From: Chthoniobacterales bacterium
Lineage (GTDB): Bacteria > Verrucomicrobiota > Verrucomicrobiia > Chthoniobacterales > UBA10450
Assembly: GCA_040004385.1 (NCBI GenBank)
Contig: JBDUAZ010000039.1
Coordinates: 1 to 36,591, forward strand
DNA: 36,591 bases
Direction of reading: 5' to 3'
In this document: positions 1,302-20,349 of the stretch, in pieces
How positions within the stretch are numbered: the stretch's first letter is position 1
Layout: every line of letters starts with the position of its first letter
Program-made: the position numbers and the translations under genes
The notes under the pieces: model-generated
What the model was told of the DNA's origin: nothing
The model's database searches: none
The model's input: the letters and a program-made list of their open reading frames with translations, nothing else

Positions 1302-2402
1302 TTATAGGCCGATCGCGCGCAACACATCACTTTCGTTCGCTGCGATCGGCTTGATGTCGGTGAGCGGAATCGATTCTGGATCTTTCAAACCGTGTCCGGT
1401 CACCGTGCAAACGATGATGCTTCCTGTGCGGACATTCATGAAAGAAAGAGCCGACTGACTGTCCGCCTCGCAGCATTTGAATAGCCCCGCGATCGAGGCC
1501 GCGCTTGCCGGCTCCACGAAAATTCCTTCATTCCGCGCCAGCCATTGTTGTGCGGCGAGGATTTCGGCATCGGTAACGATATCAATCGCTCCTCGAGACT
1601 CGTCGATCGCGCGCCGCGCTGATTTCCAACTCGCCGGATTCCCGATCCGGATTGCCGACGCGACCGTTTCCGGTGCTTCGATGATTTTGTCATGAAAGAT
1701 CGGCGCCGCGTCCGCTGCTTGAAAGCCAACCATCGCTGGCAGAAGCGATGTGATCTGCGCATCTCGATATTTCCGATAGCCTTCCCAATAGGCGGTGATA
1801 TTTCCCGCGTTGCCGACCGGGAGCAGGTGGAGGTCCGGTGCATTGCCAAGTTCATCACAAACTTCGAATGCCGCCGTGGTCTGGCCCGCTATGCGGTCCG
1901 GATTGATCGAATTAACTATCGCGAAATCCGGTCGCGTGCCGATCGCGCGCACAATCCGCAGTGCGGTATCGAAATTACCTTCGATCGCGACGACACTGGC
2001 TCCGTACGCGATCGCCTGAACCAGTTTTCCGGAGGCGATTTTGCCCGCGGGAAGAATTACCGCGCAGCGAATGCCCGCACGCGCGGCGTAGGCGGCTGCC
2101 GATGCCGAAGTGTTGCCGGTAGAGGCGCAGACGATCACGGCGATCCCCTTCTCTACCGCTTTCGAAACAGCGACCGTCATGCCGCGATCTTTAAATGAAC
2201 CGGTGGGGTTCAGGCCTTCGTATTTGATGAACACCCTGCAGTCCCGTCCCACTTTTGCGCTCAACCGCGGTGAATAAATCAACGGCGTTCCACCTTCGCC
2301 TAACGACACGACCGGCGTTGTCTCAGCGACCGGGAGAAATTGACGATACCGCTCGATCACTCCCCTGCCCCGCATTCCGATTTGGTGCACAGGCGTATCC
2401 AT
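1302..2402 (-). CDS. thrC: Threonine synthase (PLP-dependent, short form)
   Basis: ORF 1302..2501 contains GVIERYRQFLPV...VSLGEGGTPL...YEGLNPTGSFKDRGMTVAVSKA, including the PLP-lysine motif SFKDRG. I trimmed the start to the ATG at 2402 (MDTPVHQIGMRGRGVIERY) because the upstream 33 codons are Arg/Cys-rich and look non-coding. The ATG at 2375 is an alternative start. Confidence 0.9.
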   Translation of the reverse strand: MDTPVHQIGMRGRGVIERYRQFLPVAETTPVVSLGEGGTPLIYSPRLSAKVGRDCRVFIKYEGLNPTGSFKDRGMTVAVSKAVEKGIAVIVCASTGNTSASAAAYAARAGIRCAVILPAGKIASGKLVQAIAYGASVVAIEGNFDTALRIVRAIGTRPDFAIVNSINPDRIAGQTTAAFEVCDELGNAPDLHLLPVGNAGNITAYWEGYRKYRDAQITSLLPAMVGFQAADAAPIFHDKIIEAPETVASAIRIGNPASWKSARRAIDESRGAIDIVTDAEILAAQQWLARNEGIFVEPASAASIAGLFKCCEADSQSALSFMNVRTGSIIVCTVTGHGLKDPESIPLTDIKPIAANESDVLRAIGL

Positions 2403-2460
2403 CACCAAGTCTCTATACCGAATTTGGATTCGATGCATGCGTGGAACGCCCGCCTCACCA

Positions 2461-2501
2461 TTGCAAAACCTGCGCGTAACGGGGCGCGAAAGCCGTTGCA
2501 A
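2461..2501. repeat. Pair of TTGCAA palindromes (2461-2466, 2496-2501) flanking a GC-rich segment in the thrC / dehydrogenase divergent spacer
   Basis: Read directly as TTGCAAaacctgcgcgtaacggggcgcgaaagccgTTGCAA. The inner segments aacgg/ccgtt and cgcg/cgcg are also self-complementary. The function is unknown. Confidence 0.3.
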
Positions 2502-2563: not shown

Positions 2564-5500
2564 ATGCCCGAGCTGAGCAAAAAAGATAAACTTCGCCTCC
2601 TCACTATTCTTCTGGAGAGTCGGCACGGCGATCTGCGCGAAGAGAATCTAAACCGGCAGGGCAAAGGCCATTTCCACGTCTCCGGGATGGGCCACGAAGC
2701 CCTTGCCGTCCTCGCCTTTGCGATGAACGACGGCGACTACGTCTGCCCGTATTATCGCGATCGCGGTCTCGTGCTCGGTCGCGGAGTCGCTTCGCGCGAA
2801 CTCGCGCTCGATTATTTTGCGAAGCGAAAAGGCCAAAGTCACGGGCGGCAGATGCCGTCGCATTACAGTTACGCCGAGCGCCATATCTGGAGCGTGCCGA
2901 CGCCGACCGGTTCGCAACTACTTCCGGCATGCGGCATTGCCTGGGGAATCACACTCGATAACAAGCCGAACGTTGTAGTGGCGACAATTGGCGACGCCGC
3001 AACGCGACAGGGAGATTTTTTCGAAGCCGTTTGTTTCGCGAAAGAAAAAAAACTTCCGGTGCTCTTCGTCGTTGAGGACAACAAGTACGGCATCAGCAGT
3101 CCCACGCGCAAAATCAATCCGCGTGCGCTGGATGTTTTGCAGCCTAACGACTGGCGCGAGATCGACGGCGCGGATTGCCAGCAAGTTTATGATGCGGGTG
3201 TTGAGGCATTCGACTCGATGCGCGCCGGTAACGGTCCCGCATTTTTTTGGGTAAACATGGAACGCCTCTCAAGTCACACGAGCAGTGACGATCAGAAACT
3301 TTATCGCAGCGCCGAGGAGCTTCAGGATTTGGAGAAAGGCGACCCTCTTCGCGCCTGGAGCCAGCGACTCATCGCCGAGAAAATTATTGGCACGGAAGAA
3401 TACGAGAAGCTGGATAAGGAAATAAAGGAACGAATTCGCCAGGAGTTTGTCGAAGCCGATCGCGCGGAAAATCCGACCGCGGACGAACTCGAACTGCACG
3501 TCGTCGCGGAATTTCCTCAGCTCGACGATGAGGTGTTGCCCGCGGGGAAATATCGGATTGGCGATACCGTCAACAAGACCCTGCGTCAGGGTCTCGAGAA
3601 AGATGCACGACGCATTATTTTCGGCCAGGACGTAGAGGATCCGAAAGGCGGCGTGTTCCGCCTGACGCAAAAGCTGTCGACCGAATTTCCGAAGCAGGTT
3701 TACAACTCGCCCCTCGCCGAATCGACGATCCTGGGTGTGGCCTGCGGTCTCGCTTCCTACGGAAAACGGCCCGTGTTCGAGCTGCAGTTTATTGACTTCA
3801 TCGGACCTGGTTGGAACCAGCTCGTGACGAATTTGTCCACGCTCCGCTGGCGATCGTTTGGAACCTGGACCTGCCCCGCCGTGATCTACGCGCCCTACGG
3901 CGCGTACTTGCCGGGCGGAAGCCTTTGGCACAGCCAGGCGAACGAAGCGGCGCTGGCCCACTATCCTGGAATTAATGTCGTGATCCCGAGTACGCCGGAG
4001 GACGCCGCCGGGCTCCTCTGGACCGCGATGCACTGCGAAGATCCGACGATCGTTTTGATTCCAAAGCACTTGCTTTGGGCCGAACACGAATCCGCTGAAC
4101 CCATTCGCGCGGTGCCGCTCGGAGTGGCGCGAAAAAGGAAGAGTGGCTCGGACGTTACATTGGTGGCTTGGGGCAATACCGTCGAGAAATCACTCGAAGC
4201 GGTTGAGCAAATTGGCAATGAGGTCAGCATCGATCTGATCGATCTGAGATCGATCGTGCCGTGGGATCGCACCGCGATCGAAGAATCGGTTCGGCGGACC
4301 GGACGGCTCATTGTCGTGCAAGAGGACAGCGAGAACTGCAGCGTCGGCCAGATGATTATTTCGCACATCGCGGCGATGCCGGACGTTTGGAGCGAGCTCG
4401 CCAGTCCGCCGATTCTCGTTAGCAAAAAGAATGTGATGATCGGCTACAACCCCATCTACGAATATGCGGCGCTACCGGACGTCGAGCGGATTGTCGCCGC
4501 GGTGAAGACCGCCATGTCGATGCGGGGAGAACGCGTTGCATCAGTCTCGTCGCCGGAAAGTATTGCGACTTCGATCACAAAGTCAGATGCAGAGCAAAAA
4601 CCGTCACGGACGACCCAGCAACGCGCGCAGAGCGTGACGGTGCCGATCATGGGCGAAGGAATTCGCAACGCGAAAGTCGTCGCATTGCTGAAAAACCCGG
4701 GGGACCCGATCGAGCTCGACGATCCGTTGTGCGAAGTGGAAACCGACAAGGCGGTCTACCCTATCGAGTCGTCGTTCGCCGGCGTAATGGGTGAATGGAA
4801 AACGGAAGTCGGCGCGACAGTCGACATCGGCCAGGAGATCGGCACCATTTTAAGCTCGGAGTCGTCGTGGGCCGATCAACTTGAAAGCGCGGCGGACACT
4901 TCACCAGATGGTGTAGCTGCCGCTGTCACAGCGGCAGAGGCCAACGGCGCGAAACCTGACCCAGCGCAAACTGTGGCGGCAGGCGTGTCGCCTGTAAAAC
5001 CCGGAGGCCCGCAGCCGGTACGGCTGCCACCACAACGCAAATCGCCGGCAATCGAACCAGCCCTCTCCCCTACGATCACGCGCCGTCTCGGCCGGGTCGT
5101 GCCCGCGAATCTGCAAATCGACGCGCGATGGGGTGGTATTAGAAAAGCTCGCGACGCAGCAAAAAAAACTGATGGCAAAAATGCGGCATCGCCTTCGGTA
5201 ATGATCGCGTGGGCGGTCGTGCGCGCGATGGAAAAACACGCTTCATTCCGTCGCATCATGCTCGAAGACGATTCGATCGTAGAGAACGAGGAGTTCGATC
5301 TCGGCGTTGCTGTCGCGCTGGAGGGCGATCGCCTCGCAACTGCGGTCGTCACTCACGCAAACGCGCGCGACTGGCCCGACTTCGTGCAGCGTTACAATGA
5401 GACGGTGGAAGAAACCCGCGCCGGCCGCGTGGATGCGGTAAATGCGCCGATTGTAATCAGCAGTCTCGGAGCGTTTGGAGTGCGCGCGGCCGCTCCCATT

Positions 5501-5719
5501 GTGGTGCCGCCATCGGTCGGGACCCTTTTTGTTGGCTCGGCGCATCACGAGATCTTCGGCGACGGCAACAACAGCAAGCCGGCAGAAGTGATAACGCTCT
5601 CGCTCACGTTCGACCATCGTGTTGTGAACGGCGCGGGTGCGGCGAGCTTCGTCCACGAAATTAAAGAGCAGATTGAGAATTTCAAAATCCCGAGTGCCGC
5701 CGCAGTTCGTCGTGCATAA
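2564..5719 (+). CDS. Fused 2-oxoacid dehydrogenase: E1 alpha + E1 beta + lipoyl domain + E2 acyltransferase catalytic core in one 1051-aa polypeptide
   Basis: E1alpha (about aa 1-320) has the TPP motif GDAATRQGDFFEAVCFAKEKKLPVLFVVEDNKYGIS. E1beta (about aa 330-650) has FGQDVEDPKGGVFRLT and NSPLAESTILGVACGLA. The lipoyl domain (about aa 691-763) has CEVETDKAV, with the lipoyl-lysine codon at 4748-4750. An Ala/Pro-rich linker spans aa 764-825. The E2 core (aa 826-1051) has ISSLGAFG and LTFDHRVVNGAGAASF, with the catalytic His codon at 5615-5617. Confidence 0.85.
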   Translation: MPELSKKDKLRLLTILLESRHGDLREENLNRQGKGHFHVSGMGHEALAVLAFAMNDGDYVCPYYRDRGLVLGRGVASRELALDYFAKRKGQSHGRQMPSHYSYAERHIWSVPTPTGSQLLPACGIAWGITLDNKPNVVVATIGDAATRQGDFFEAVCFAKEKKLPVLFVVEDNKYGISSPTRKINPRALDVLQPNDWREIDGADCQQVYDAGVEAFDSMRAGNGPAFFWVNMERLSSHTSSDDQKLYRSAEELQDLEKGDPLRAWSQRLIAEKIIGTEEYEKLDKEIKERIRQEFVEADRAENPTADELELHVVAEFPQLDDEVLPAGKYRIGDTVNKTLRQGLEKDARRIIFGQDVEDPKGGVFRLTQKLSTEFPKQVYNSPLAESTILGVACGLASYGKRPVFELQFIDFIGPGWNQLVTNLSTLRWRSFGTWTCPAVIYAPYGAYLPGGSLWHSQANEAALAHYPGINVVIPSTPEDAAGLLWTAMHCEDPTIVLIPKHLLWAEHESAEPIRAVPLGVARKRKSGSDVTLVAWGNTVEKSLEAVEQIGNEVSIDLIDLRSIVPWDRTAIEESVRRTGRLIVVQEDSENCSVGQMIISHIAAMPDVWSELASPPILVSKKNVMIGYNPIYEYAALPDVERIVAAVKTAMSMRGERVASVSSPESIATSITKSDAEQKPSRTTQQRAQSVTVPIMGEGIRNAKVVALLKNPGDPIELDDPLCEVETDKAVYPIESSFAGVMGEWKTEVGATVDIGQEIGTILSSESSWADQLESAADTSPDGVAAAVTAAEANGAKPDPAQTVAAGVSPVKPGGPQPVRLPPQRKSPAIEPALSPTITRRLGRVVPANLQIDARWGGIRKARDAAKKTDGKNAASPSVMIAWAVVRAMEKHASFRRIMLEDDSIVENEEFDLGVAVALEGDRLATAVVTHANARDWPDFVQRYNETVEETRAGRVDAVNAPIVISSLGAFGVRAAAPIVVPPSVGTLFVGSAHHEIFGDGNNSKPAEVITLSLTFDHRVVNGAGAASFVHEIKEQIENFKIPSAAAVRRA

Positions 5720-7772
5720 GCGCGAATACTTCACTCCCGCCGTATTTGAATCGACGCGACTGCGTGTTGCGTTCGTGGCCGTCATCACTTGCGCGGCGTC
5801 GTTGTTAAACGCTGAAACGCCACGGGCATTACAGCCCGAAGATTTCGCCGCTTTGCGGGAAGTGAATGAGCCGAATCTGTCGCCCGATGGTGATGCTGCG
5901 GTTTACATCGTTAAAACAGTCGACCTCGGCAAAGACAAGCAGGCAGCGAATTTGTGGCTCGCGAAATGGGACGGCTCGGAAAATCGCGCGCTCACCTTCG
6001 GCCTGGAAAAGCAAAGTCATCCGCGCTGGAGCCCTGACGGTAAATGGATCGGCTTTTTATCCGGCCGAACAGACGAGAACGAAAACGATCAGCTCTGGAT
6101 TCTTTCCAGCCGCGGCGGCGAAGCGGAACGGATCACGGAAATCAAAGGGAGTGTCGATGACTTCGCGTGGTCACCTGATTCGAAACGCATGGTGCTGGTG
6201 ATTCACGAACCGGATCCGCGCGAGCCGGAAGCGAAGGAGAAAGAAAAGAAGACCGTTCCGCCGCTGGTGATCGATCGACTTCATTTCAAACAGGACATCG
6301 AGGGCTACCTCACCGCCCGATACTCGCATTTGCATCTCCTCGACCTCGCTACGCGCAAGATGGAGCAGCTGACGAGCGGCGCGCACGATGATGTTCTGCC
6401 GGCATGGTCTCCGGATGGCGCCGACATCGCATTCGTAAGCAAACGTGGCGATGATCCGGACCGCTCGGAGAATTGGGACATCTATATTGCCGCTGCGCGC
6501 GCCGGCGGAAAGGAGCGCCAGCTAACCACTTCACCCGAAACGGACGCGCATCCGGATTGGCAGAGCGCTCCAGCGTGGAGTCCAGATGGCAAAACCATTG
6601 CCTACATCCACGGCGGCGATCCGAAGATGATCGAATACGCGGTGCATTCGCTCGCGACCATTCCAAGCGCGGGCGGGGAGGCGCGAATCATGACGGAGAA
6701 ACTCGATCGAAACGTTACGCAGCCCCACTGGTCCGCCGACGGCAAATCAGTTTTTGGTGTGATCGAAGATGATGGGGCACAATATCTCTCGCGCATTCCT
6801 GCAGCGGGCGGGGCACCGCAGGCGTTCGTAGGCGGACGACGAAAAGTGAACGCCTACGACGTGGCCTCGAATGGCCGCGTCATTGTGCTCGCGAGCACGC
6901 CAGAGAGGCCGCACGAGATCTTCGCTGCCGAGGGTGCGGGGTTACGTTGCCTCTCGAAACAGAATGACGCTTTTCTCGCCCAAGTTCGAATCGCGGGTGT
7001 CGAAGAAACGAAGTGCAAGAGCTTGGACGGGACAGACGTTCATGGGTTCGTCTTGCGATCGCTGGATCCACCTTCGGCGCCAACAAAGGCACCCGCGCTA
7101 CTGCGTCCGCATGGTGGCCCGCAGTCGCAATATGCGAGCGAATTTAACTTCGAAGCGCAACTCTTCGCTGCGAATGGATACGCGGTAATTTTGCCGAACC
7201 CCCGCGGCTCCACGGGTCGTGGCAACGATTACGCGATGGGCCTTTACGCGGACTGGGGACATCGCGATGTGGAAGATGACCTCGCTGCCCTCGACGACGC
7301 GATTGCGCGGGGCATTGCTGATCCCGAACGCCTCGGCGTTGGCGGGTGGAGCTACGGCGGCATCGCGACTAATTATTTGATTGCTACGACGACGCGGTTC
7401 AAAGCGGCAACGAGTGGCGCCTCTATTTCCAATGTGACTGCGGGTTTTGGAACAGATCAATACATACGCGACTACCAATATGAACTCGGACCGCCATGGA
7501 AAAATCCGGAGGCCTGGGCACGCATTTCGTATCCATTTCTCCATGCCGACCGCATCAAGACTCCGACGTTGTTCCTCTGCGGCGAGCGCGATTTCAACGT
7601 GCCACTACTTAACAGCGAACAAATGTACGCCGCCCTGCGCAGCCAGGGAATTGCAACTGAGCTCGTGATTTATCCCGGTCAGTTTCACAGTCTCAAGAAA
7701 CCGAGCTACGTGATCGACCGTTACAAACGCTATCTCGATTGGTACAGGAAATGGATCGGCGCTACGCACTAG
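5712..7772 (+). CDS. S9 family serine peptidase (prolyl oligopeptidase / acylaminoacyl-peptidase type), secreted
   Basis: Repeated beta-propeller WSPDG blades are present (WSPDGKWIGFLS, WSPDSKRMVLV, WSPDGADIAFVS, WSPDGKTIAYIH, WSADGKSVFGV). The C-terminal alpha/beta hydrolase domain has the nucleophile elbow GVGGWSYGG, plus GERDFNVP (Asp) and GQFHSL (His). A signal-peptide-like RLRVAFVAVITCAASLLNA is present. The track ORF starts at 5637 inside the previous gene; I prefer the in-frame GTG at 5712. The start is uncertain. Confidence 0.82.
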   Translation: MHKREYFTPAVFESTRLRVAFVAVITCAASLLNAETPRALQPEDFAALREVNEPNLSPDGDAAVYIVKTVDLGKDKQAANLWLAKWDGSENRALTFGLEKQSHPRWSPDGKWIGFLSGRTDENENDQLWILSSRGGEAERITEIKGSVDDFAWSPDSKRMVLVIHEPDPREPEAKEKEKKTVPPLVIDRLHFKQDIEGYLTARYSHLHLLDLATRKMEQLTSGAHDDVLPAWSPDGADIAFVSKRGDDPDRSENWDIYIAAARAGGKERQLTTSPETDAHPDWQSAPAWSPDGKTIAYIHGGDPKMIEYAVHSLATIPSAGGEARIMTEKLDRNVTQPHWSADGKSVFGVIEDDGAQYLSRIPAAGGAPQAFVGGRRKVNAYDVASNGRVIVLASTPERPHEIFAAEGAGLRCLSKQNDAFLAQVRIAGVEETKCKSLDGTDVHGFVLRSLDPPSAPTKAPALLRPHGGPQSQYASEFNFEAQLFAANGYAVILPNPRGSTGRGNDYAMGLYADWGHRDVEDDLAALDDAIARGIADPERLGVGGWSYGGIATNYLIATTTRFKAATSGASISNVTAGFGTDQYIRDYQYELGPPWKNPEAWARISYPFLHADRIKTPTLFLCGERDFNVPLLNSEQMYAALRSQGIATELVIYPGQFHSLKKPSYVIDRYKRYLDWYRKWIGATH

Positions 7773-8976
7773 CGCCCCTGGCGAAAGCATAACGCGCGGC
7801 GGCTTTGCCCGCCTGCGTTCCTGTCGAGAAGCAACCCTGTAAGAGGTAACCGCCGGTCGGCGCTTCCCAGTCGATCATCTCGCCGGCGACAAAAACGCCG
7901 GGCAATCTGCGCAACATCAAATCGTCGTCGAGTTCGCGCCAAGCGACGCCGCCGGCGGATGAAATCGCTTCGGCAATCGGCCGGGGCTGTTTTAGTGCGA
8001 GCGGGAATTTTTTGATACGAGCGATTAGCTGCTCGCGATCCGCCGCCAGATCTACGCAAAAGGTTTCAGCGAGCGCGATTGCGGCATCGTTCAGCTTCCA
8101 TGCAGCGAACCAGTCGCCTTTGTCCGTCAAATGTTCGCTCCGTTCCAACAAAACGTCCGCGGAGAGTTGCGGCTTTAAGTCGATTTCGATCCTCGGTTCC
8201 GGCATCGTCCTAAGAGTGTGGCCGAGGCGGTAGATCGCGCCCCCTTCCAAACCGTAGCGCGTGATCAGAAGCTCCCCTGAGACCGTTTCGTTTCCCGCGG
8301 TGACGGCGAGATTCTTGAGTGGCATTCCTTCCGCGCGCGCGAGGAATTCCTGCGGCCAGTCCACCTCCCATCCGCAGTTTGCTGGCGACCACGGTGTGAT
8401 CTCAATGCCGTGCGCGGCAAGAACCACCGGCCACCTGCCATCGGAACCAGTCTCGGGATAGGATGCCCCGCCAAGCGCAAGAACGACAGCAGCGGCAGTC
8501 AGCTCACGCATTCCATCGGTTGTTTCAAATCGTACACACCAGCCGACGGGCGAAGCCCTTAATTCCTGCAGGCGCTGGCCCATGCGAAACTCCACGCCGT
8601 GAGTTCGTAATCTCTCCAGCCATGCGCGAAGAAGCGCTGCCGCTTTTTGCCCACGCGGAAAAATGCGTCCGCTGGTGCCGACGTAGGTGTCAACGCCAAG
8701 CCCGTGCACCCATTCGCGCAACTCGTCCGGCGAAAACTGGCTTAACAAGTCGCGCCAGCGCTGAGGCTCATCGCAATATCGTGCAGGAAAATCCTTGAGC
8801 GGTTCGGAGTGCGTGAGATTCAATCCTCCCCGGCCTGCGATCAAAAACTTCCGGCCGGGGGAACGCTGCGTATCGCATACGATGACTTTCGTACCCGTCT
8901 CGGCCGCGACTTCGGCGGCGCGCAATCCGGCGGGACCGCCACCGATGATGAGCACAGAAACGGGATCCCCTACCAT
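7762..8976 (-). CDS. FAD-dependent flavoprotein, HI0933/BaiN-like family
   Basis: The N-terminal Rossmann motif is VLIIGGGPAGLRAAEVAAETGTKVIVCD, followed by GRKFLIAGRGGLNLTH and the C-terminal GVFVAGEMIDWEAPTGGYLLQGCFSTG typical of this family. The ATG lies at 8976-8974. Confidence 0.8.
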   Translation of the reverse strand: MVGDPVSVLIIGGGPAGLRAAEVAAETGTKVIVCDTQRSPGRKFLIAGRGGLNLTHSEPLKDFPARYCDEPQRWRDLLSQFSPDELREWVHGLGVDTYVGTSGRIFPRGQKAAALLRAWLERLRTHGVEFRMGQRLQELRASPVGWCVRFETTDGMRELTAAAVVLALGGASYPETGSDGRWPVVLAAHGIEITPWSPANCGWEVDWPQEFLARAEGMPLKNLAVTAGNETVSGELLITRYGLEGGAIYRLGHTLRTMPEPRIEIDLKPQLSADVLLERSEHLTDKGDWFAAWKLNDAAIALAETFCVDLAADREQLIARIKKFPLALKQPRPIAEAISSAGGVAWRELDDDLMLRRLPGVFVAGEMIDWEAPTGGYLLQGCFSTGTQAGKAAARYAFARGASA

Positions 8977-9058
8977 ATTTGAAACGTTAGCGCGCTTCGT
9001 TCCTGCTGGCGACGTGGCGCGAGTGGCGATCCACTCCGGTTAAGGCGAGATTCGTTCG

Positions 9059-10114
9059 ATGAAATCGGGTTCGCCACGATCGATTATCCACCTCGATATG
9101 GATTGTTTCTACGCGGCGATCGAAGTCCGTGATCGCCCTGCTTTGAGAGGCAAGCCAGTCGGGGTCGGTGGAACTCGCGACCGCCGCGGCGTGCTCACCA
9201 CGTGCAACTACGAGGCGCGCGCCTTCGGCATTCGCTCCGCCATGCCCACGTTCATGGCTCTGCAACGCTGTCCGCATCTGATCATGGTACCGACGCGGTT
9301 CGACGTTTATCGCAAAGAGTCGGCGGTGATCCGCGAAATCCTGCACAGCTTCACCGACCTGATCGAGCCGCTCTCGCTGGACGAGGCCTACCTCGACGTG
9401 ACAGCGCATCCCGGTGTACCGGGAGCATTAGCGCAGGTGATTCGTGATCTGATTTTTAGAAAAACGAAGCTGACGGCGTCCGCCGGCATTGGCCCGAACA
9501 AGCTCATCGCAAAAATCGCAAGCGACCTGAAGAAGCCGAACGGCCAGTACGAAGTGAAAGCCGCTGACGTTCCGGAATTTATCGCGCCGCTGCCGGTCAG
9601 TAAGCTATGGGGCATCGGCAATGTCACAGCGCAAAAGCTGGAACGTCGCGGAATCATGATCTGCGCGGATATGCAGCGGTTGTCGAGAATTGAGCTGCAG
9701 GAACTCTTCGGAAAGTTCGGCGTCGAACTTTACGATCTCTGCCGCGGGATTGATCACAGGCCGGTCGAGCCGAACCAGCCGCGAAAGTCGCTCAGCACCG
9801 AAGAAACATTTTCGGCCGACCTGGAAACGCTCGAACGTTGCGAAGAGAAATTACCGGAGTTGTTCGAAGAGTTAATGGCCGATCTCGCGCAAAAGGAAGG
9901 AGCCCGAACCGTCACGAAGATTTTTGTGAAGCTAAAGTTTAGCGACTTTGCTCGCACAACGGTTGAACGCGCCGGGCTTCCGCCAACACTCGACTCATTT
10001 CGCGCGCTCCTTTCGGAAGGTTTTGCTCGAACAAAGAAAAGTGTGCGTCTGATCGGTCTCGGCGTGCGTTTTGCCAGCACCGGCATTTCGGACGCTCAGC
10101 TTCCGTTGCTCTAG
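9059..10114 (+). CDS. dinB: DNA polymerase IV (Y-family translesion polymerase)
   Basis: The sequence contains IIHLDMDCFYAAIEVRDRPALRGKPVGVGG, LSLDEAYLDVT, TASAGIGPNKLIAKIASD and LPVSKLWGIGNVTAQKL. Confidence 0.93.
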   Translation: MKSGSPRSIIHLDMDCFYAAIEVRDRPALRGKPVGVGGTRDRRGVLTTCNYEARAFGIRSAMPTFMALQRCPHLIMVPTRFDVYRKESAVIREILHSFTDLIEPLSLDEAYLDVTAHPGVPGALAQVIRDLIFRKTKLTASAGIGPNKLIAKIASDLKKPNGQYEVKAADVPEFIAPLPVSKLWGIGNVTAQKLERRGIMICADMQRLSRIELQELFGKFGVELYDLCRGIDHRPVEPNQPRKSLSTEETFSADLETLERCEEKLPELFEELMADLAQKEGARTVTKIFVKLKFSDFARTTVERAGLPPTLDSFRALLSEGFARTKKSVRLIGLGVRFASTGISDAQLPLL

Positions 10115-10120
10115 TTGCGG

Positions 10121-10888
10121 CTATTGCGGTGCCCACTTCGGCGGCCGCTTCTCTAGAAACGCAGCGATGCCTTCCCGCGCCTCTTTTGATTCGCGGGCTT
10201 CCATATGGTGGCGCAACGCGGTCTCGATATCTTCCTGCACCGAAGTCGAGCAAAGCTCCTCGAGCAAACGTTTACTGCTCGCGAGCGCGCCCGGCGCCCC
10301 CTGCAGTATGGAAGCGATCAGCTTTTGCACCTCGCCGTCGAGCTCGCCAGGCGGAACGACGCGATTGACGAGCCCGATCTCTTTTGCACGATCGGCGTCG
10401 ATTAAATCTCCGGTGAAGAGAAGCTCGCGGACGTCGCGTTCGCGCAGTTGTCGGCGGAGGAATGTCAGGACCAAACCGGCGACAAGTCCGCGTTTCGCTT
10501 CCGGGTAACCAAACTTTGTCCGCTCGGCTGCGACGACGAAATCGCAGGCGGACATGATTCCGGCGCCGCCCGCAACCGCTGCCCCATGCACGGAAGCGAT
10601 CGTAATCAGCCGCGTTTGACTAATCGTCAGCAACGTCTTCGCCACCATTTCGGCGGAGCGATGCGCTTTTTCCGGTTCGCCGGCTTCCTGCAAATCGAGC
10701 CCGGTGCAGAAGGCTTTCCCTGCGCCGCGCAAAATCAGCACTCGTTGTTCGGCAACGGCGGAAACGGCATCGATCGCGTCGCAAAGTTCCGTCATCAACT
10801 CGATCGTGAGGGCGTTGCGTCGCTCCGGACGGCTCAAGGTAAGACGCGTAACTTGCGGCTGAGGCTTATCGACGAGAACGGTAGGCAT
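10121..10888 (-). CDS. Enoyl-CoA hydratase/isomerase (crotonase) family; methylglutaconyl-CoA hydratase suggested by gene context
   Basis: Crotonase fold motifs are present: LTLSRPERRNALT, ILRGAGKAFCTGLDL, VHGAAVAGGAGIMSACDF and FGYPEAKRGL. The start is trimmed to the ATG at 10888 (MPTVLVDKPQ); the 47-codon upstream extension of the track ORF would overlap the divergent lyase gene. The specific substrate is inferred from neighbours only. Confidence 0.83.
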   Translation of the reverse strand: MPTVLVDKPQPQVTRLTLSRPERRNALTIELMTELCDAIDAVSAVAEQRVLILRGAGKAFCTGLDLQEAGEPEKAHRSAEMVAKTLLTISQTRLITIASVHGAAVAGGAGIMSACDFVVAAERTKFGYPEAKRGLVAGLVLTFLRRQLRERDVRELLFTGDLIDADRAKEIGLVNRVVPPGELDGEVQKLIASILQGAPGALASSKRLLEELCSTSVQEDIETALRHHMEARESKEAREGIAAFLEKRPPKWAPQ

Positions 10889-10961
10889 GCGGGTTGAGGC
10901 CAAGGTGAAAGTGCAAGTTTCTTCGCTACCCTCAAGATAACAAGGTTCAAGGGCGCACTGA

Positions 10962-11822
10962 ATGAAAGAGGTAAAAATCATCGAGTGTCCGCGCGATGCC
11001 TGGCAGGGGCTTCCGCGCCAAATTCCCATCGAGACAAAGGTGCTGTATCTCCGCGCGCTGATCGACGCCGGCTTCCGTCACATCGATGCGGCCAGCTTCG
11101 TCTCGCCCCAAGCGGTGCCGCAAATGGCCGACAGCGAAACGGTGCTCGAGCAATTGGCGCCCCCCAATACGGTCGAGATCATCGGCATCGTCGTGAATGA
11201 AAAAGGCGCGGAACGTGCGATCGCGACCGGAGTTATCAGCACGCTTGGCTATCCATGTTCGATCTCGCCCACGTTTCTACGGCGGAATCAAAATCAATCG
11301 CCCGAAGAAAATCTTACTGTTTTGGAAAACATTCAAAAGCGGGCGCGGGAGAATGGGCTTGAAGTGGTCGCTTACGTTTCGATGGCGTTTGGAAATCCGT
11401 ATGACGATCCCTGGAGCGAGGAACGACTGATTGAGATGTCCGCGGCCATCACCGGGCTGGACATTTGCTCGATCTCGCTGGCGGATACGGTCGGCGTAGC
11501 GACACCCGAATTGATTTCCAAAACGGTGGCAGCGGTGATGCGTCAGTGCGGTAGTTATGACATCGGGGTCCACATGCACAGCGAGCGCGGCGAGGCGGAA
11601 GCGAAAGTGCTGGCCGCCTACGACGCCGGTTGCCGACGCTTCGACGCGGCTATGGGCGGGATTGGCGGTTGTCCTTTTGCGCAGGATCGACTGGTCGGAA
11701 ACATCGCGACCGAAGAAGTGCTGCAAGCGCTGACGAAACGCGGTGTGCAGTCGGCTCTGTCGCGCAAGCTGGAAAACGTCGCGATCCTCAATGCCGAGAT
11801 CAGCCGCGACTTTTCGGCGTAA
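10962..11822 (+). CDS. Hydroxymethylglutaryl-CoA lyase (HMGL-like TIM barrel)
   Basis: The sequence contains VKIIECPRDAWQG, IDAASFVSPQAVPQMAD, ISLADTVGVATP, GVHMHSERG and GGIGGCPFA. Confidence 0.85.
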   Translation: MKEVKIIECPRDAWQGLPRQIPIETKVLYLRALIDAGFRHIDAASFVSPQAVPQMADSETVLEQLAPPNTVEIIGIVVNEKGAERAIATGVISTLGYPCSISPTFLRRNQNQSPEENLTVLENIQKRARENGLEVVAYVSMAFGNPYDDPWSEERLIEMSAAITGLDICSISLADTVGVATPELISKTVAAVMRQCGSYDIGVHMHSERGEAEAKVLAAYDAGCRRFDAAMGGIGGCPFAQDRLVGNIATEEVLQALTKRGVQSALSRKLENVAILNAEISRDFSA

Positions 11823-11825
11823 CGA

Positions 11826-13454
11826 TTAGACCTGAACGACGCCAGTGTGGAAACGCGCCTTCGGCGTGGGCCGGGAAACGTAGGAGAGCAGCCTCACGAG
11901 CACCTCGCGCGTTTCGTGCGGTTGAATGATCGCATCGACCCAGCCGCGGGCCGCGCCGTAGCGGATGTCGGTTTGCTCTTCGTAAGATTTCTTTACGTTC
12001 GCGCGCAGTTCTTCCAACTCTGCCGGCGAAGATTTTTTATCTCCGCGATCTCTCGCGCGCGCGAGCACGCTGAAGACCGTGTCCGAAGCCTGCGCGGCGC
12101 CCATGACGGCGTAACGTGAGTTCGGCCACGCAACGATGAAGCGCGGATCGTAGGCCTTGCCGCAGAGCGCATAGTTGCCTGCGCCGAATGAGCCACCCAC
12201 CACGACCGTGATTTTTGGCACGGTCGAGTTGCTGACTGCATTCACAAGTTTTGCACCGCTGCGAATGATTCCGCTTTGCTCGGCGTCGCGTCCGACCATG
12301 AATCCGGTGACGTCCTGGAAGAAAATGATCGGCAAGCCGGTCTGATTGCAATCCATGATGAAGCGCGCGGCCTTGTCTGCACTATCGGCATAGATCACGC
12401 CGCCCATCTGAATGCCGTCCTTCTTCGTGCGAACTTGCATCCGTTGGCTTGCGACTATACCAACGGCGCGACCGGCGATCCGCGCGTAGGTCGTCACCAG
12501 CGTCTTGCCGTAATCGGCTTTGTACTCGTCGAGCGAACCCTTATCGATAATGGACGCGAGAAGGTCGCGCGCGTCGTAGGGCTTATGACCGTCGAGGCTG
12601 ATCAAATCATAAACTGCATCTGGTTTTTTTGCTGCAGAGCCAATCGCGTTTTTCTGCGTTTGTTTTGCATGCTCTGCTTCCGGCAGCAAACCGACGAGCG
12701 AGCGCAGACGCTTGAGGCACGAGAGATCGTCCTTCTCGTAAAAATCGACAGTACCGCTTATTTCGGAATGCATTTTCGCGCCGCCAAGCTCCTCCGCTTC
12801 GATCACCTGTCCGATCGCAGCTTTCACGAGAGAAGGCCCCGCGAGATAGAGGCCACTGCCTTCCGTCATCAGGATTTTGTCGCAAAGGACCGGCAGGTAG
12901 GCCCCGCCGGCTACGCAATTGCCCATGATCGCGGCGAACTGCGGCAGGCCGGCAGCGGAAATCACGGAGTTGTTTCGAAAGATCCGGCCAAAATCATCTT
13001 CATCGGGAAAAATCTCGTCCTGCATTGGCAGGAAAACGCCGGCTGAATCGACAAGGTAAAGAATCGGAAGCGCGTTTTCGAATGCAACGCGTTGCGCGCG
13101 GATCAATTTCTTCGCAGTTGCCGGAAAGAAAGCGCCCGCTTTTACGGTGGCGTCGTTCGCGATGACCATGCACGGAACGCCCGCGACTTCACCGATCCCC
13201 GCGACAGCGCCCGCGGCGGGAATGTTGCCCCACTGCTCGTACATTTTGTAAGCAGCCCAAAGGCCGATTTCGAAAAATGGTGAATTCTTGTCGAGGAGGC
13301 GCGCAATTCTTTCGCGCGCCGGAAGTCGTCCCATTTTTCGTTGCCGATCCTGGCCTGCCTTACCGCCACCTTCACGCAGAACCGACTCCTGTTTGGCAAT
13401 GCTCGCGCAGCGCTCGCGTAGAGTATCGGGCGACGGCGGAGCAGATGCAGACAT
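11826..13454 (-). CDS. Acyl-CoA carboxylase carboxyltransferase (beta) subunit, methylcrotonyl-CoA carboxylase beta-like
   Basis: The 542-aa product has tandem carboxyltransferase domains: ANDATVKAGAFFPATAKKLIRAQRVAFENALPILYLVDSAGVFLP, FGRIFRNNSVISAAGLPQFAAIMGNCVAGGAYLP, and the C-terminal GGSFGAGNYALCG. Substrate assignment is by similarity pattern and context only. Confidence 0.85.
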   Translation of the reverse strand: MSASAPPSPDTLRERCASIAKQESVLREGGGKAGQDRQRKMGRLPARERIARLLDKNSPFFEIGLWAAYKMYEQWGNIPAAGAVAGIGEVAGVPCMVIANDATVKAGAFFPATAKKLIRAQRVAFENALPILYLVDSAGVFLPMQDEIFPDEDDFGRIFRNNSVISAAGLPQFAAIMGNCVAGGAYLPVLCDKILMTEGSGLYLAGPSLVKAAIGQVIEAEELGGAKMHSEISGTVDFYEKDDLSCLKRLRSLVGLLPEAEHAKQTQKNAIGSAAKKPDAVYDLISLDGHKPYDARDLLASIIDKGSLDEYKADYGKTLVTTYARIAGRAVGIVASQRMQVRTKKDGIQMGGVIYADSADKAARFIMDCNQTGLPIIFFQDVTGFMVGRDAEQSGIIRSGAKLVNAVSNSTVPKITVVVGGSFGAGNYALCGKAYDPRFIVAWPNSRYAVMGAAQASDTVFSVLARARDRGDKKSSPAELEELRANVKKSYEEQTDIRYGAARGWVDAIIQPHETREVLVRLLSYVSRPTPKARFHTGVVQV

Positions 13455-19170: not shown

Positions 19171-19220
19171 AATCCCGGGGTCGCTGCGCCAGGGATTTTC
19201 CTTGCGCGTAATAGGCGCAA
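19171..19220. repeat. Two inverted repeats in the cysD / nuoB divergent spacer: AATCCC-N15-GGGATT (19171-19197) and TTGCGC-N7-GCGCAA (19202-19220)
   Basis: Both were read directly from the sequence, and the arms are perfect reverse complements. The second repeat ends 14 nt before the nuoB ATG. The function is unknown. Confidence 0.3.
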
Positions 19221-19234
19221 CTTTACTCTTTCAC

Positions 19235-19771
19235 ATGCGCGAAATTCATCCCGCGGCCTACGATTCAAAGATCGAAGGCAACGTTATTTTCACCCGTCTG
19301 GACGCGGCGATGAATTGGATGAGGAAGAATTCTCTGTGGCCGATGCCGATGGGCCTCGCCTGTTGTGCGATCGAGCTGATGGCGACGGCTTCGGCACGCT
19401 TCGATATCTCGCGATTCGGCGCTGAGGTAATGCGATTTTCGCCGCGGCAATGCGATGTGATGATCGTAGCCGGCACGGTCACGTACAAAATGGCCCTGGC
19501 AGTAAAACGTATTTACGAGCAGATGCCGGAACCAAAATGGGTCATTGCCATGGGGGCATGCGCATCGACTGGCGGGATGTATCGTTCCTACGCCGTTTTA
19601 CAAGGCATCGATCAACTGTTGCCTGTCGATGTCTACGTTTCCGGTTGTCCGCCACGGCCCGAAGCTCTGCTCGAAGGTCTGATGAAGCTGCAACAAAAAA
19701 TTACCGGCGAGCATTCATTCGTTGAGCAGAAGCGCGAGCTGCGGAATCAGGACAACGCCGTGCCGGCATGA
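19235..19771 (+). CDS. nuoB: NADH-quinone oxidoreductase subunit B
   Basis: The sequence contains [27 protein letters not shown] and [11 protein letters not shown], which supply the four Cys ligands of cluster N2. The track ORF begins at TTG 19202; I prefer the ATG at 19235. Confidence 0.9.
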
Positions 19772-20349
19772 CGGGTCAGCAACTTCTCGAATCGCTGGGC
19801 CAGTTGCTTGGCGAAAAGATTCAGGAAAAAAAGGAGTTTCGTGGCGAAACGACCTACCACATTCGCCGATCCGATTTGCAGGAAGTCGCAAGAGTTTGCA
19901 AAGAGGATTTTTCGTTCGATTACCTCCTCGATATTTCGAGCGTCGACAATTTCGGTTCAGATCCCCGCTTTGAAATTGTCTACGAACTTTACTCGATGAA
20001 GGTTGCCGTCCACCTGCGGCTGAAGGTGCAAGTCTCGGAAGACGACGCGACGGTCGCGACAGTTTCGCATATTTGGCCTACGGCAAACTGGCACGAACGC
20101 GAGGTCTACGACATGATGGGTTTGCGCTTCAACGGACACCCCGACTTACGTCGGATCCTGATGTGGGAGGGATATCCCTACTTCCCGCTGCGAAAGGAAT
20201 TTCCGCTCGAAGGCTTGCCAAGCGATATGCCGGACGTTGCATTTAGCGCGAGCGCGCCGCTCGAGGGTGGACCGTTCGTTACAGTGCCAGGCACCGCGAC
20301 TACCAAGGACCGCGAGCCTCGCGCGCGGCGGCCGGCTGCCGCTGAGTAG
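19768..20349 (+). CDS. nuoC: NADH-quinone oxidoreductase subunit C
   Basis: The sequence contains [31 protein letters not shown]. Its ATG overlaps the nuoB stop (ATGA). Confidence 0.88.

Follow-up and report, generated by a model that had tools for sequence, protein, structure and literature searches.

A putative single-chain 2-oxoacid dehydrogenase uniting E1alpha, E1beta, lipoyl and E2 modules without a subunit-binding domain in Verrucomicrobiota and Planctomycetota

[quoted passage not shown] In G. stearothermophilus, the free C-terminus of E1beta contributes to PSBD binding, and the C-terminus of canonical E2 proteins forms a hydrophobic ...LLL knob or 3-10 helix that gives rise to 24- or 60-meric cores. 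All known family members form their E1 sites across a dimer and their E2 sites across a trimer. In starter-unit systems of the QncN/QncL type, which depend on ThDP and lipoyl groups and belong to natural-product biosynthesis, a lipoyl arm is charged by an enzyme resembling E1, and a domain resembling E2 then delivers the unit to an ACP within biosynthetic clusters. A PSBD is absent in the actinobacterial OdhA/Kgd, where an E2 domain is followed by a homodimeric E1 of the E1o (SucA) class and which borrows the lipoyl domain of E2p in place of its own, forming an 800-kDa hexamer in which two E2 trimers are combined with three E1 dimers (PMC10415282). In the eukaryotic 2-oxoglutarate dehydrogenase complex, E2o is likewise reported to lack a PSBD, with E3 being held by the adaptor MRPS36/KGD4 (PMC9974300).

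The protein described in this study is encoded on contig JBDUAZ010000039.1 of assembly GCA_040004385.1 from a Chthoniobacterales bacterium (UBA10450), whose 36,591-nt stretch, analysed as a whole, is referred to as the window. It combines E1 alpha and beta, a lipoyl arm and an E2 core on one chain without a PSBD (Table 1), as had been proposed in an initial sequence-only reading of this DNA. Five Pfam domains follow each other in a single frame that is not interrupted by a stop, each exceeding its gathering cut-off: E1_dh (residues 24-305, E=2e-51, 175 bits vs a cut-off of 22), Transket_pyr (334-504, E=2e-26, 93 bits vs 27), Transketolase_C (521-643, E=9e-23, 81 bits vs 26), Biotin_lipoyl (690-762, E=3e-15, 56 bits) and 2-oxoacid_dh (862-1040, E=1e-32, 114 bits). 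These are the five domain types that had been predicted, and the E3-binding domain, whose absence was equally expected, was not found by the profile search. The motifs quoted in the earlier reading are also found where it had placed them, with GDAAT...EDNKYGIS at residues 143-178, NSPLAESTILG at 381-391, ISSLGAFG at 965-972, DHRVVNG at 1017-1023 and EVETDKAV containing the lipoyl-lysine K729 (codon at 4748-4750) as part of a DKA motif (D728-K729-A730).

Table 1. Coordinates of the fusion gene, its modules and selected neighbours within the window
Feature	Position (nt)	Strand	Residues	Description
Threonine synthase	1302..2501	-		TIGR00260 thrC, 311 bits, above cut-off; divergent from fusion gene
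Fusion gene	2564..5719	+		ATG start, 1051 codons and stop; E1alpha-E1beta-lipoyl-E2core in one frame
E1alpha module	2564..3523	+	1-320	Pfam E1_dh; best PDB relative 1um9_A
Alpha-beta junction	3524..3562	+	321-333	In frame, moderate conservation
E1beta module	3563..4519	+	334-652	Pyrimidine-binding (Transket_pyr) and Transketolase_C
Linker 1	4520..4624	+	653-687	Hypervariable, disordered
Single lipoyl domain	4625..4852	+	688-763	Pfam Biotin_lipoyl
Linker 2	4853..5053	+	764-830	Ala/Glu/Ser/Pro-rich, without PSBD
E2 acyltransferase catalytic core	5054..5692	+	831-1043	Pfam 2-oxoacid_dh
Variable C-terminal tail	5693..5719	+	1044-1051 and stop	Missing from Opitutales homologues
Enoyl-CoA hydratase (ECH)	10121-11029	-		Pfam and NCBIfam; leucine-catabolic neighbour
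HMG-CoA lyase (HMGL)	10962-11822	+		Pfam and NCBIfam; leucine-catabolic neighbour
Acyl-CoA carboxylase carboxyltransferase (MCCB)	11826-13454	-		Pfam and NCBIfam; leucine-catabolic neighbour

The catalytic residues of all modules are strongly conserved. In an alignment of 150 sequences with identities down to 42%, G143, N173, H238, D242, D243, H456, D728, K729, A730, D1017, H1018, R1019, N1022 and G1023 are invariant, as are Y247, R248, S457 and Q458, and conservation reaches at least 90% at S966 and S967. These positions belong to the ThDP/Mg motif of E1alpha (G143-D144-A145...N173, nt 2990-3082), which was matched to the class pattern GDG-x(25-30)-N and whose D144 is replaced by Glu in Opitutales, His238 of its HTSSDD loop (nt 3275-3277), His456 of E1beta (nt 3929-3931) and the E2 site with Ser966/967 (nt 5459-5464), His1018 (5615-5617) and Asn1022 (5627-5629). 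An AlphaFold2 monomer model based on a 150-sequence alignment (mean pLDDT 79, pTM 0.70) shows four folded modules. The folds of its E1alpha, E1beta, lipoyl and E2 parts are those of canonical complexes, and so are its catalytic residues, namely the His of alpha and of beta, the ThDP motif, DKA, and Ser with DHRxxNG; its chemistry is presumably the same. On these grounds we consider it probable that the protein works as a single-chain 2-oxoacid dehydrogenase, composed of a heterotetramer-class E1, a lipoyl domain, a CAT-fold E2 core and two disordered linkers.

The initial reading had reckoned with separate E1 and E2 genes merged by an error of assembly, and an annotation artefact, a frameshift or a pseudogene would create a similar picture. 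Frameshifts are indeed found in three of 80 related loci, one of them within linker 2 (L078), but they are located at unrelated, non-homologous positions and are not followed by a start codon, whereas the other 77 loci are intact. Moreover, a single frame is retained in more than 350 independent database clusters, originating from many assemblers and including cultured isolates, and linker lengths differ among relatives by whole codons. With one frame conserved to this extent, an artefact was rejected and its probability appears negligible. A relative of the fusion is encoded in 131 species-representative genomes, and the 80 of these that were listed all belong to Chthoniobacterales or related Verrucomicrobiota. 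Full-length relatives with 76-83% identity comprise more than 120 database clusters, and the same architecture is shared by Planctomycetota and by Opitutales, among them the cultured Coraliomargarita and Lentimonas. In Chthoniobacterales it is the norm, and the thousands of database clusters carry generic names only. The presumed novelty of the fusion therefore holds in one respect, as full-text literature searches for it have found no characterisation of the four-module protein, but not in another, since the architecture itself is common in Verrucomicrobiota and Planctomycetota.

The nearest relative of E1 in the PDB is the branched-chain E1b alpha of T. thermophilus, and the beta module superimposes on the corresponding chain 1um9_B with a TM of 0.89 at 36% identity (Foldseek). 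The separate alpha and beta chains that characterize the heterotetramer class are here one chain, and in structure comparisons the fused E1 also resembles the single-chain folds of transketolase and SucA. At the junction, strands are predicted for residues 323-331 with a pLDDT of around 88-93. In E1beta, the segments 441-460 and 621-640 are highly conserved (0.97-0.99) and contain regions of low pLDDT in the monomer (447-460 and 625-633), which may, in one reading of the model, become ordered only within the dimer. An E1alpha-E1beta chain is also found in fused proteins of about 650-690 residues, one of which (P0128) shares 52% identity over residues 8-651 and many others 42-44%, but these end after the transketolase-C domain and contain neither a lipoyl domain nor an E2 core. 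In the one genomic context of a fused E1 that was inspected (P0481), no adjacent E2 gene was recognisable. In their sources, such proteins are named '2-oxoisovalerate dehydrogenase E1 component'.

Both linkers are hypervariable and predicted to be disordered. Linker 1, with a mean column conservation of 0.34 and indels, has a pLDDT below 50 at residues 656-685, and the stretch aligned to residues 652-690 spans 35-58 residues in relatives. The following lipoyl domain is predicted as a beta-sandwich (block-mean pLDDT 78-94 over 691-760). Linker 2, which ranges from 27 to 70 residues among Chthoniobacterales and whose pLDDT is below 50 across 773-837, includes the 62-residue segment (nt 4853-5038, residues 764-825) in which the earlier reading had noted the missing PSBD. 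This absence is borne out by several searches. The Pfam domain PF02817 has no match in the window protein even at E<=1, and it is found in none of roughly 360 precomputed domain lists. A custom HMM built from seven PSBD sequences did not match the window protein, 70 relatives or 150 aligned sequences, whereas in a positive control the PSBD omitted from each leave-one-out model was recovered after insertion into the linker, with E-values of 3e-7 to 2e-21. In Opitutales, just 25-28 residues correspond to positions 763-833 as a whole, and a PSBD would thus not fit.

The start of linker 2 might instead harbour a docking element of a different kind, which would mediate contacts to E3 or between chains. 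A semi-conserved acidic helix is located at about residues 766-780, with conservation of 0.59 at 761-780 compared to 0.11-0.19 in the remaining linker; AlphaFold2 predicts a helix at 766-776, and (D/S)SFADQFE.AAE.S is a recurrent motif of this region in Chthoniobacterales. However, the motif is absent from the short linker of Opitutales, and the helix, whose pLDDT is modest, may just cap the lipoyl domain at its C-terminus. We thus regard such an element as unlikely.

The E2 core aligns to those of E. coli and A. vinelandii E2p (4n72 and 1eaa), with matching ISSLG and DHRV(I/V)NG motifs, the Asn of DHRVVNG finding its counterpart in the A. vinelandii variant DHRVINGA. It is nevertheless divergent, as reflected in its score of 114 bits and in the leading 43 positions of the Pfam profile that remain unmatched. 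Its block-mean pLDDT is 73-96 over residues 851-1040, but 51 at 971-980. Near its end, E1038 and F1040 are conserved as part of an E-x-F-x-(L/I)-(P/V) sequence, which reads E-N-F-K-I-P in the window protein and is followed by a variable end, whereas Opitutales homologues terminate with ...GIERFDLV. Since this C-terminus is atypical compared to the canonical ...LLL knob, a normal 24- or 60-meric core should not be assumed.

The closest characterised analogue of the window protein is OdhA/Kgd, with which it shares the presence of E1 and E2 catalytic domains in one polypeptide without a PSBD, although the two fusions are independent. In contrast to OdhA, the window protein has the order E1alpha-E1beta-lipoyl-E2, long flexible linkers, an E1 of the alpha/beta class and its own lipoyl domain. 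The similarity is weak, with 32 bits to the E2 part and a TM of 0.43, and membership in the OdhA/Kgd type was rejected for the reversed order, the class of E1 and the own lipoyl domain. Compared to canonical complexes, the three chains have become one, the stoichiometry of E1:lipoyl:E2 is locked at 1:1:1 and the C-terminus of E1beta is no longer free. With E1 sites formed by dimers and E2 sites by trimers, the chain would have to assemble at least into a hexamer. It might either resemble OdhA, with two E2 trimers held together by three E1 dimers, or form a 24- or 60-meric core bearing 12 or 30 E1 dimers. The puzzle raised by the sequence-only reading, of how a dimeric E1 could be accommodated on a trimeric E2, thus has a solved precedent in the OdhA hexamer (PMC10415282).

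In the proposed mechanism, the E1 module would decarboxylate a 2-oxoacid using ThDP and reductively acylate K729 in the same chain or in an adjacent one, whereupon the lipoyl domain would swing to the E2 active site (His1018 and Ser967) for transfer of the acyl group to what we infer to be CoA. Finally, the arm would be re-oxidised by E3 (dihydrolipoamide dehydrogenase), probably supplied in trans from a gene located elsewhere. As noted earlier, no lpd is found among the scanned ORFs of at least 150 residues in the window, and no lpd-like ORF is present within 10 kb in the 80 related loci and six further contigs (86 loci). Since E1 is covalently tethered via the swinging arm, no PSBD is needed to hold it, and tethering may reasonably be assumed to have made this domain dispensable for E1. 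Conversely, as a consequence of its absence, E3 would act untethered or dock through a different contact. The eukaryotic 2-oxoglutarate dehydrogenase complex, whose E2o lacks a PSBD, provides a precedent for the recruitment of E3 by another route, although it has separate E1o and E2o chains and an adaptor (PMC9974300), for which no candidate was identified in the case of the window protein.

The E1ab-lipoyl-E2core cassette is also found in other contexts. One protein (P0131) joins it to a PP-binding domain and another (P0221) to ACP-KS-MT-C-A modules, and a sister family contains a KAS III in place of the E2 core. Resembling in this respect the QncN/QncL-type systems, the E2-like core could thus pass the acyl group to a carrier protein instead of CoA and thereby generate biosynthetic starter units. 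Yet the window protein and its relatives in Verrucomicrobiota and Planctomycetota stop directly after the core, carrier-protein or synthase genes are absent from all neighbourhoods inspected, and a single-copy core-genome gene that is kept across an order fits primary metabolism, which makes a non-CoA acceptor for this protein very improbable. As a wider and tentative proposal, a 'three-in-one' 2-oxoacid dehydrogenase with a non-textbook quaternary structure might have arisen independently in bacteria of the PVC group, in which E2 would perhaps form trimers only, owing to its short atypical C-terminus, with E1 dimers linking the chains into a hexamer like that of OdhA or a different closed particle and E3 acting without a docking domain. 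The E1ab-lipoyl cassette would then be a portable module that is plugged into E2 cores, KAS III and PKS/NRPS loading modules, which, if true, implies a lipoyl-mediated delivery of acyl groups that bypasses free acyl-CoA.

The branched-chain substrate suggested in the earlier reading finds partial support in the neighbourhood of this stand-alone gene. Genes for ECH and HMG-CoA lyase are located within 10 kb in 28 of the 51 Chthoniobacterales loci whose downstream sequence extends for 9 kb or more, MCCB in 21 of the same 51, and in eight Chthoniobacterales loci an ECH gene lies within 1 kb of the fusion gene. Since leucine-catabolic genes are often nearby, branched-chain 2-oxoacids are possibly the substrates in Chthoniobacterales, with 2-oxoisocaproate from leucine as leading candidate. 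'Ca. Udaeobacter' is described as a branched-chain amino acid auxotroph rich in peptide uptake systems and proteases (bioRxiv 10.1101/053942). The neighbourhood evidence is contextual, and it is weak because the liu-type linkage is missing in the Opitutales and Planctomycetota contigs inspected, where the gene is solitary, and the liu genes lie on other strands amid housekeeping genes. The same machine could therefore be the organism's pyruvate dehydrogenase or an enzyme of broad specificity, in line with the highest NCBIfam scores, which were obtained with the models for PDH E1 alpha, PDH E1 beta and AceF-type E2p, and with the E2p cores as nearest relatives of its E2. However, these scores are all far below the equivalog cut-offs, none of which is reached (PDH_E1_alph_x, 198 vs a cut-off of 411), E1 has its best solved relative in the branched-chain enzyme of T. 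thermophilus and liu genes recur near the fusion gene in Chthoniobacterales, rendering this assignment possible but doubtful. On its upstream side, the transcription unit of the fusion gene is limited by the threonine synthase gene, which occupies this position in 45 of the 64 loci having at least 2 kb of upstream sequence.

The open reading frame at 2564-5719 on the forward strand runs without a stop from its ATG through 1051 codons, and the protein that it encodes is best described as a widespread, uncharacterised version of a 2-oxoacid dehydrogenase complex. A sequence-only reading had proposed that E1alpha, E1beta, a lipoyl domain and an E2 core are fused in this single frame, which is borne out by Pfam, where the five expected domains are found in order (table). 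The motifs that it had named are also correctly placed (GDAAT...EDNKYGIS at residues 143-178, NSPLAESTILG at 381-391, ISSLGAFG at 965-972 and DHRVVNG at 1017-1023), as is the lipoylation motif EVETDKAV, whose lysine, K729, is encoded by nucleotides 4748-4750. All matches to NCBIfam models stay well under the equivalog cut-offs, with PDH-type E1alpha and E1beta and AceF-type E2 at the top. [quoted passage not shown]

Pfam domains of the fusion protein
Domain	Residues	Location	Pfam score
E1_dh	24-305	fusion protein, + strand	175 bits
Transket_pyr	334-504	fusion protein, + strand	93 bits
Transketolase_C	521-643	fusion protein, + strand	81 bits
Biotin_lipoyl	690-762	fusion protein, + strand	56 bits
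2-oxoacid_dh	862-1040	fusion protein, + strand	114 bits

The four modules are strongly conserved in an alignment of 70 sequences, and invariance was scored on 150 sequences of 42-83% identity. The latter retain without exception Gly143 and Asn173 of the ThDP motif, His238, Asp242, Asp243, Tyr247 and Arg248 of the E1alpha loop, His456, Ser457 and Gln458 of E1beta, Asp728, Lys729 and Ala730 of the lipoylation motif, and Asp1017, His1018, Arg1019, Asn1022 and Gly1023 of the E2 motif, with Ser966 and Ser967 conserved to at least 90%. Since catalytic and lipoylation residues are either invariant or conserved to this extent, the E1, lipoyl and E2 activities all appear, as judged from sequence, to be under purifying selection. 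The E2 core aligns to the solved core of A. vinelandii E2p, whose motif has the same Asn variant as DHRVVNG (DHRVINGA). At the column of Asp144 (nucleotides 2993-2995), Opitutales homologues in the consensus of the 150-sequence alignment read GEA versus the expected GDG or GDA, with Glu in place of the Mg-binding Asp.

The possibility that separate genes had been merged by an assembly or frameshift artefact is dispelled by the relatives of the protein. The frame is continuous in 77 of 80 loci, and a search space of 5.8 billion protein clusters contains more than 120 full-length clusters at 76-83% identity (1018-1058 residues), all with the same five domains, which derive from metagenome-assembled genomes of Chthoniobacterales and other Verrucomicrobiota from many projects and assemblers. 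When one genome per species was scanned, 131 genomes proved to encode a relative, and the 80 loci retained from these belong to Chthoniobacterales, 'Spartobacteria' or Candidatus Udaeobacter (67-81% identity), together with one verrucomicrobial metagenome-assembled genome (55%). Single frameshifts are found in three loci at unrelated positions, two in E1alpha (L070, L073) and one in the linker between the lipoyl domain and the E2 core (L078). A natural split gene was considered for the latter and rejected, because no start codon follows any of the three frameshifts and the other two lie elsewhere; they are sequencing errors or sporadic pseudogenes and not a split-gene state.

The distribution of the fusion extends beyond Chthoniobacterales. 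A HMMER pass over 1.84 billion representatives (50% identity) placed the architecture in at least 12 clusters among the best 150, which were inspected. With a profile built from distant members, 120 more clusters were recovered; their proteins measure about 1010 residues, come mostly from Opitutales and include those of Coraliomargarita algicola, C. sinensis, C. parva, Coraliomargarita sp. W4R53 and Lentimonas spp., all in culture. A third search added about 45 Planctomycetota clusters. Matches of about 400 residues (P0141, P0201, P0243 and P0230) were considered as free-standing E2 and rejected, as all start inside the C-terminus of E1beta and are thus fragments of fusions; next to an unfused E1alpha-E1beta protein (P0481), the adjoining 243-residue ORF is not an E2. 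One four-module copy of 1204 residues (P0474) bears the annotation of a eukaryote, the anaerobic protist Anaeramoeba ignava, and is 47% identical to a Planctomycetota member, which could reflect lateral transfer or contamination. The architecture is common in the PVC group but apparently uncharacterised, full-text literature searches having found no paper on an E1-lipoyl-E2 fusion. In the source records the protein goes by generic or partial names, each covering only part of it, such as 'thiamine pyrophosphate-dependent enzyme', '2-oxoisovalerate dehydrogenase E1 component' or '2-oxo acid dehydrogenase subunit E2'.

The absence of a PSBD between the lipoyl domain and the E2 core, already noted in the sequence-only reading, is upheld by profile searches. 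Pfam E3_binding (PF02817) does not match the fusion protein even at E<=1 and is found in none of about 360 precomputed Pfam lists of relatives, and a profile HMM that we built from seven PSBD sequences has no match in the protein, in 70 relatives or in the 150 aligned sequences. In a positive control, leave-one-out versions of this HMM recovered the held-out PSBD spliced into the window linker with E = 3e-7 to 2e-21. Both linkers are hypervariable and contain indels, with a mean column conservation of 0.34 at residues 661-680 in linker 1, between E1beta and the lipoyl domain, and of 0.11-0.19 at 781-820 in linker 2, between the lipoyl domain and the E2 core (70-sequence alignment). Conservation returns at about residue 831 (EPALSPTITRRL), at the start of the catalytic domain. 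We considered LSPTITRRL (834-842) as a remnant of PSBD helix 1 and rejected it, as it constitutes this conserved start and is matched by neither Pfam E3_binding nor our HMM. In Chthoniobacterales, linker 1, measured over alignment positions 652-690, has 35-58 residues and linker 2 has 27-70, and in Opitutales the entire stretch aligned to residues 763-833 comprises just 25-28 residues and is therefore too short for a PSBD of about 35-40 residues.

These properties are reflected in the predicted structure. A first AlphaFold2 run with a 50-sequence alignment (77-83% identity) gave a mean pLDDT of 57 with the lipoyl domain unfolded and was discarded, and a second with 150 sequences including Opitutales reached a mean pLDDT of 79 and a pTM of 0.70, with the E1alpha, E1beta, lipoyl and E2 core modules each folded. 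Block-mean pLDDT is 78-94 in the lipoyl domain (691-760) and 73-96 in the E2 core (851-1040), except for 971-980 (51). Values below 50 are found at 656-685 and 773-837, and the model therefore contains no folded element at the expected place of the PSBD. In Foldseek, the E1beta part matches the branched-chain E1 of T. thermophilus (1um9_B, TM 0.89, 36% identity), which by sequence is also the closest solved relative of both E1 halves, and the alpha-beta fusion as a whole superposes on transketolase and SucA, both single-chain folds (TM 0.56-0.67). Residues 441-460 and 621-640 of E1beta are very highly conserved, yet 447-460 and 625-633 belong to the small number of regions modelled with low confidence in the monomer; in one reading, these loops would become ordered only across the E1 dimer interface.

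The polypeptide combines an E1 and an E2 core, both complete, with one swinging arm, connected by flexible linkers and without a PSBD. In general, 2-oxoacid dehydrogenase complexes are non-covalent multienzyme assemblies on an E2 core, whose PSBD recruits E1 and E3. In these families, ThDP is bound where two E1 protomers meet, and the active sites of E2 lie between the subunits of CAT-like trimers; the chain would therefore have to combine two-fold (E1) with three-fold (E2) contacts. Among fusions of this kind, a structure has been solved only for actinobacterial OdhA, in which E1 and E2 likewise share a chain. The fusion protein is independent of OdhA, and it is no homologue of OdhA/Kgd in architecture, as its domain order is reversed, its E1 belongs to a different class and it has its own lipoyl domain. 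OdhA forms an 800-kDa hexamer, in which three E1 dimers are capped by two E2 trimers (PMC10415282). A comparable hexamer could reconcile E1 dimers with E2 trimers; alternatively, a conventional 24- or 60-mer core might form, with the tethered E1 modules pairing. In canonical cores, a hydrophobic C-terminal 3-10 helix provides the 'knob' between trimers. The C-terminus of the fusion family is short and atypical, with Glu1038 invariant and Phe1040 at least 90% conserved in 150 sequences, Opitutales proteins ending in ...GIERFDLV and Chthoniobacterales adding a variable tail. In actinobacterial E2p, a Phe-containing insertion folds the helix back on itself, leaving trimers only (bioRxiv 10.1101/2020.07.24.212647). 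The atypical C-terminus may bear on the choice between a hexamer and a 24- or 60-mer.

With E1 covalently held via the lipoyl arm, the E1-recruiting role of the PSBD would become redundant, and E3 would either be a partner that diffuses freely, like the L-protein acting on the H-protein of the glycine cleavage system, or bind elsewhere. A weak candidate for such a docking site is an acidic amphipathic stretch directly following the lipoyl domain (residues 766-780, nucleotides 4859-4903), of which 766-776 is predicted to be helical and which is semi-conserved in Chthoniobacterales as (D/S)S(F/W)ADQ(F/L)E.AAE.S but absent in Opitutales. The window was also said to contain no lpd gene, and indeed neither Pfam scans of all its large ORFs nor a similarity search of all ORFs in the window and 80 loci, for which an E. 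coli Lpd query was used without a positive control, detected one; in six further contigs, no Lpd-like ORF was found either. A chain uniting E1 and E2 without a PSBD offers a natural test of whether the PSBD and the giant core serve active-site coupling, control of stoichiometry or E3 recruitment, and experimental study is possible since cultured Coraliomargarita and Lentimonas strains carry the fusion.

The substrate hint drawn from leucine-catabolic neighbours holds in part. Downstream sequence of 9 kb or more is available for 51 Chthoniobacterales loci; of these, 28 have the enoyl-CoA hydratase gene, 28 the HMG-CoA lyase gene and 21 the carboxyltransferase gene, and in eight relatives an opposite-strand enoyl-CoA hydratase gene begins less than 1 kb from the fusion stop, several at 30-56 bp. 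In the window, the fusion gene is divergent from a threonine synthase gene, and S9 prolyl-oligopeptidase-family, TIGR03862 flavoprotein and dinB genes (5637-10114) separate it from the leucine-catabolic genes; of the loci compared, only the window was found to have the peptidase gene here. The linkage is lost, with the fusion gene alone, in the Opitutales and Planctomycetota contigs inspected (Coraliomargarita, Lentimonas, two Planctomycetota contigs) and in one metagenome contig. Because of this loss outside Chthoniobacterales, and because the neighbours lie on other strands amid conserved housekeeping genes (aspartate kinase, thrC, ruvX, truA), the context favours a role in leucine catabolism only weakly, although branched-chain 2-oxoacids are a plausible substrate in Chthoniobacterales. 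This order includes Candidatus Udaeobacter, described as a ubiquitous and abundant soil bacterium and reported to be auxotrophic for branched-chain amino acids and rich in peptide uptake systems and proteases (bioRxiv 10.1101/053942), and since Chthoniobacterales carry this form of the enzyme, its substrate matters for the question of how these peptide scavengers burn amino acids. A promoter and terminator scan around the fusion gene gave signals at or below shuffle expectation. Elsewhere in the window, NuoB-like and NuoC-like genes stand together at 19202-20349, followed by an L,D-transpeptidase gene, with no match to further complex I subunits among the other ORFs scanned. In both Coraliomargarita and Lentimonas, the fusion gene is flanked by PAS-domain sensor kinases and a BLUF gene, and in C. 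algicola (CP138858.1, L081 1-5997) a full thiamine-biosynthesis cluster (thiC, thiS, thiE-like, thiG, thiH-like, thiF, thiD) lies about 4 kb upstream, with two sensor-kinase genes in between.

Related cassettes are found in synthases. A sister architecture of about 1100 residues, E1alpha-E1beta-lipoyl-KAS III (FabH), makes up 39 of the 150 top-ranking representatives at the 50% identity level (P0151, P0158, P0184 and 36 more), including WP_218080544.1 of the cyanobacterium Anthocerotibacter panamensis and a member in a Spirochaetaceae metagenome-assembled genome, and P0184 has KR and carrier domains in addition. Our literature search found nothing relevant on a characterised E1-lipoyl-KAS III fusion; the architecture suggests that lipoyl-borne acyl units might directly prime fatty-acid or polyketide synthesis. 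In two of the 12 or more clusters with the E1alpha-E1beta-lipoyl-E2 core architecture, this cassette has further domains: it is joined to a PP-binding (carrier-protein) domain in P0131 (1227 residues) and stands at the N-terminus of a hybrid PKS/NRPS megasynthase in P0221 (2895 residues), in the order E2core-ACP-KS-MT-C-A.
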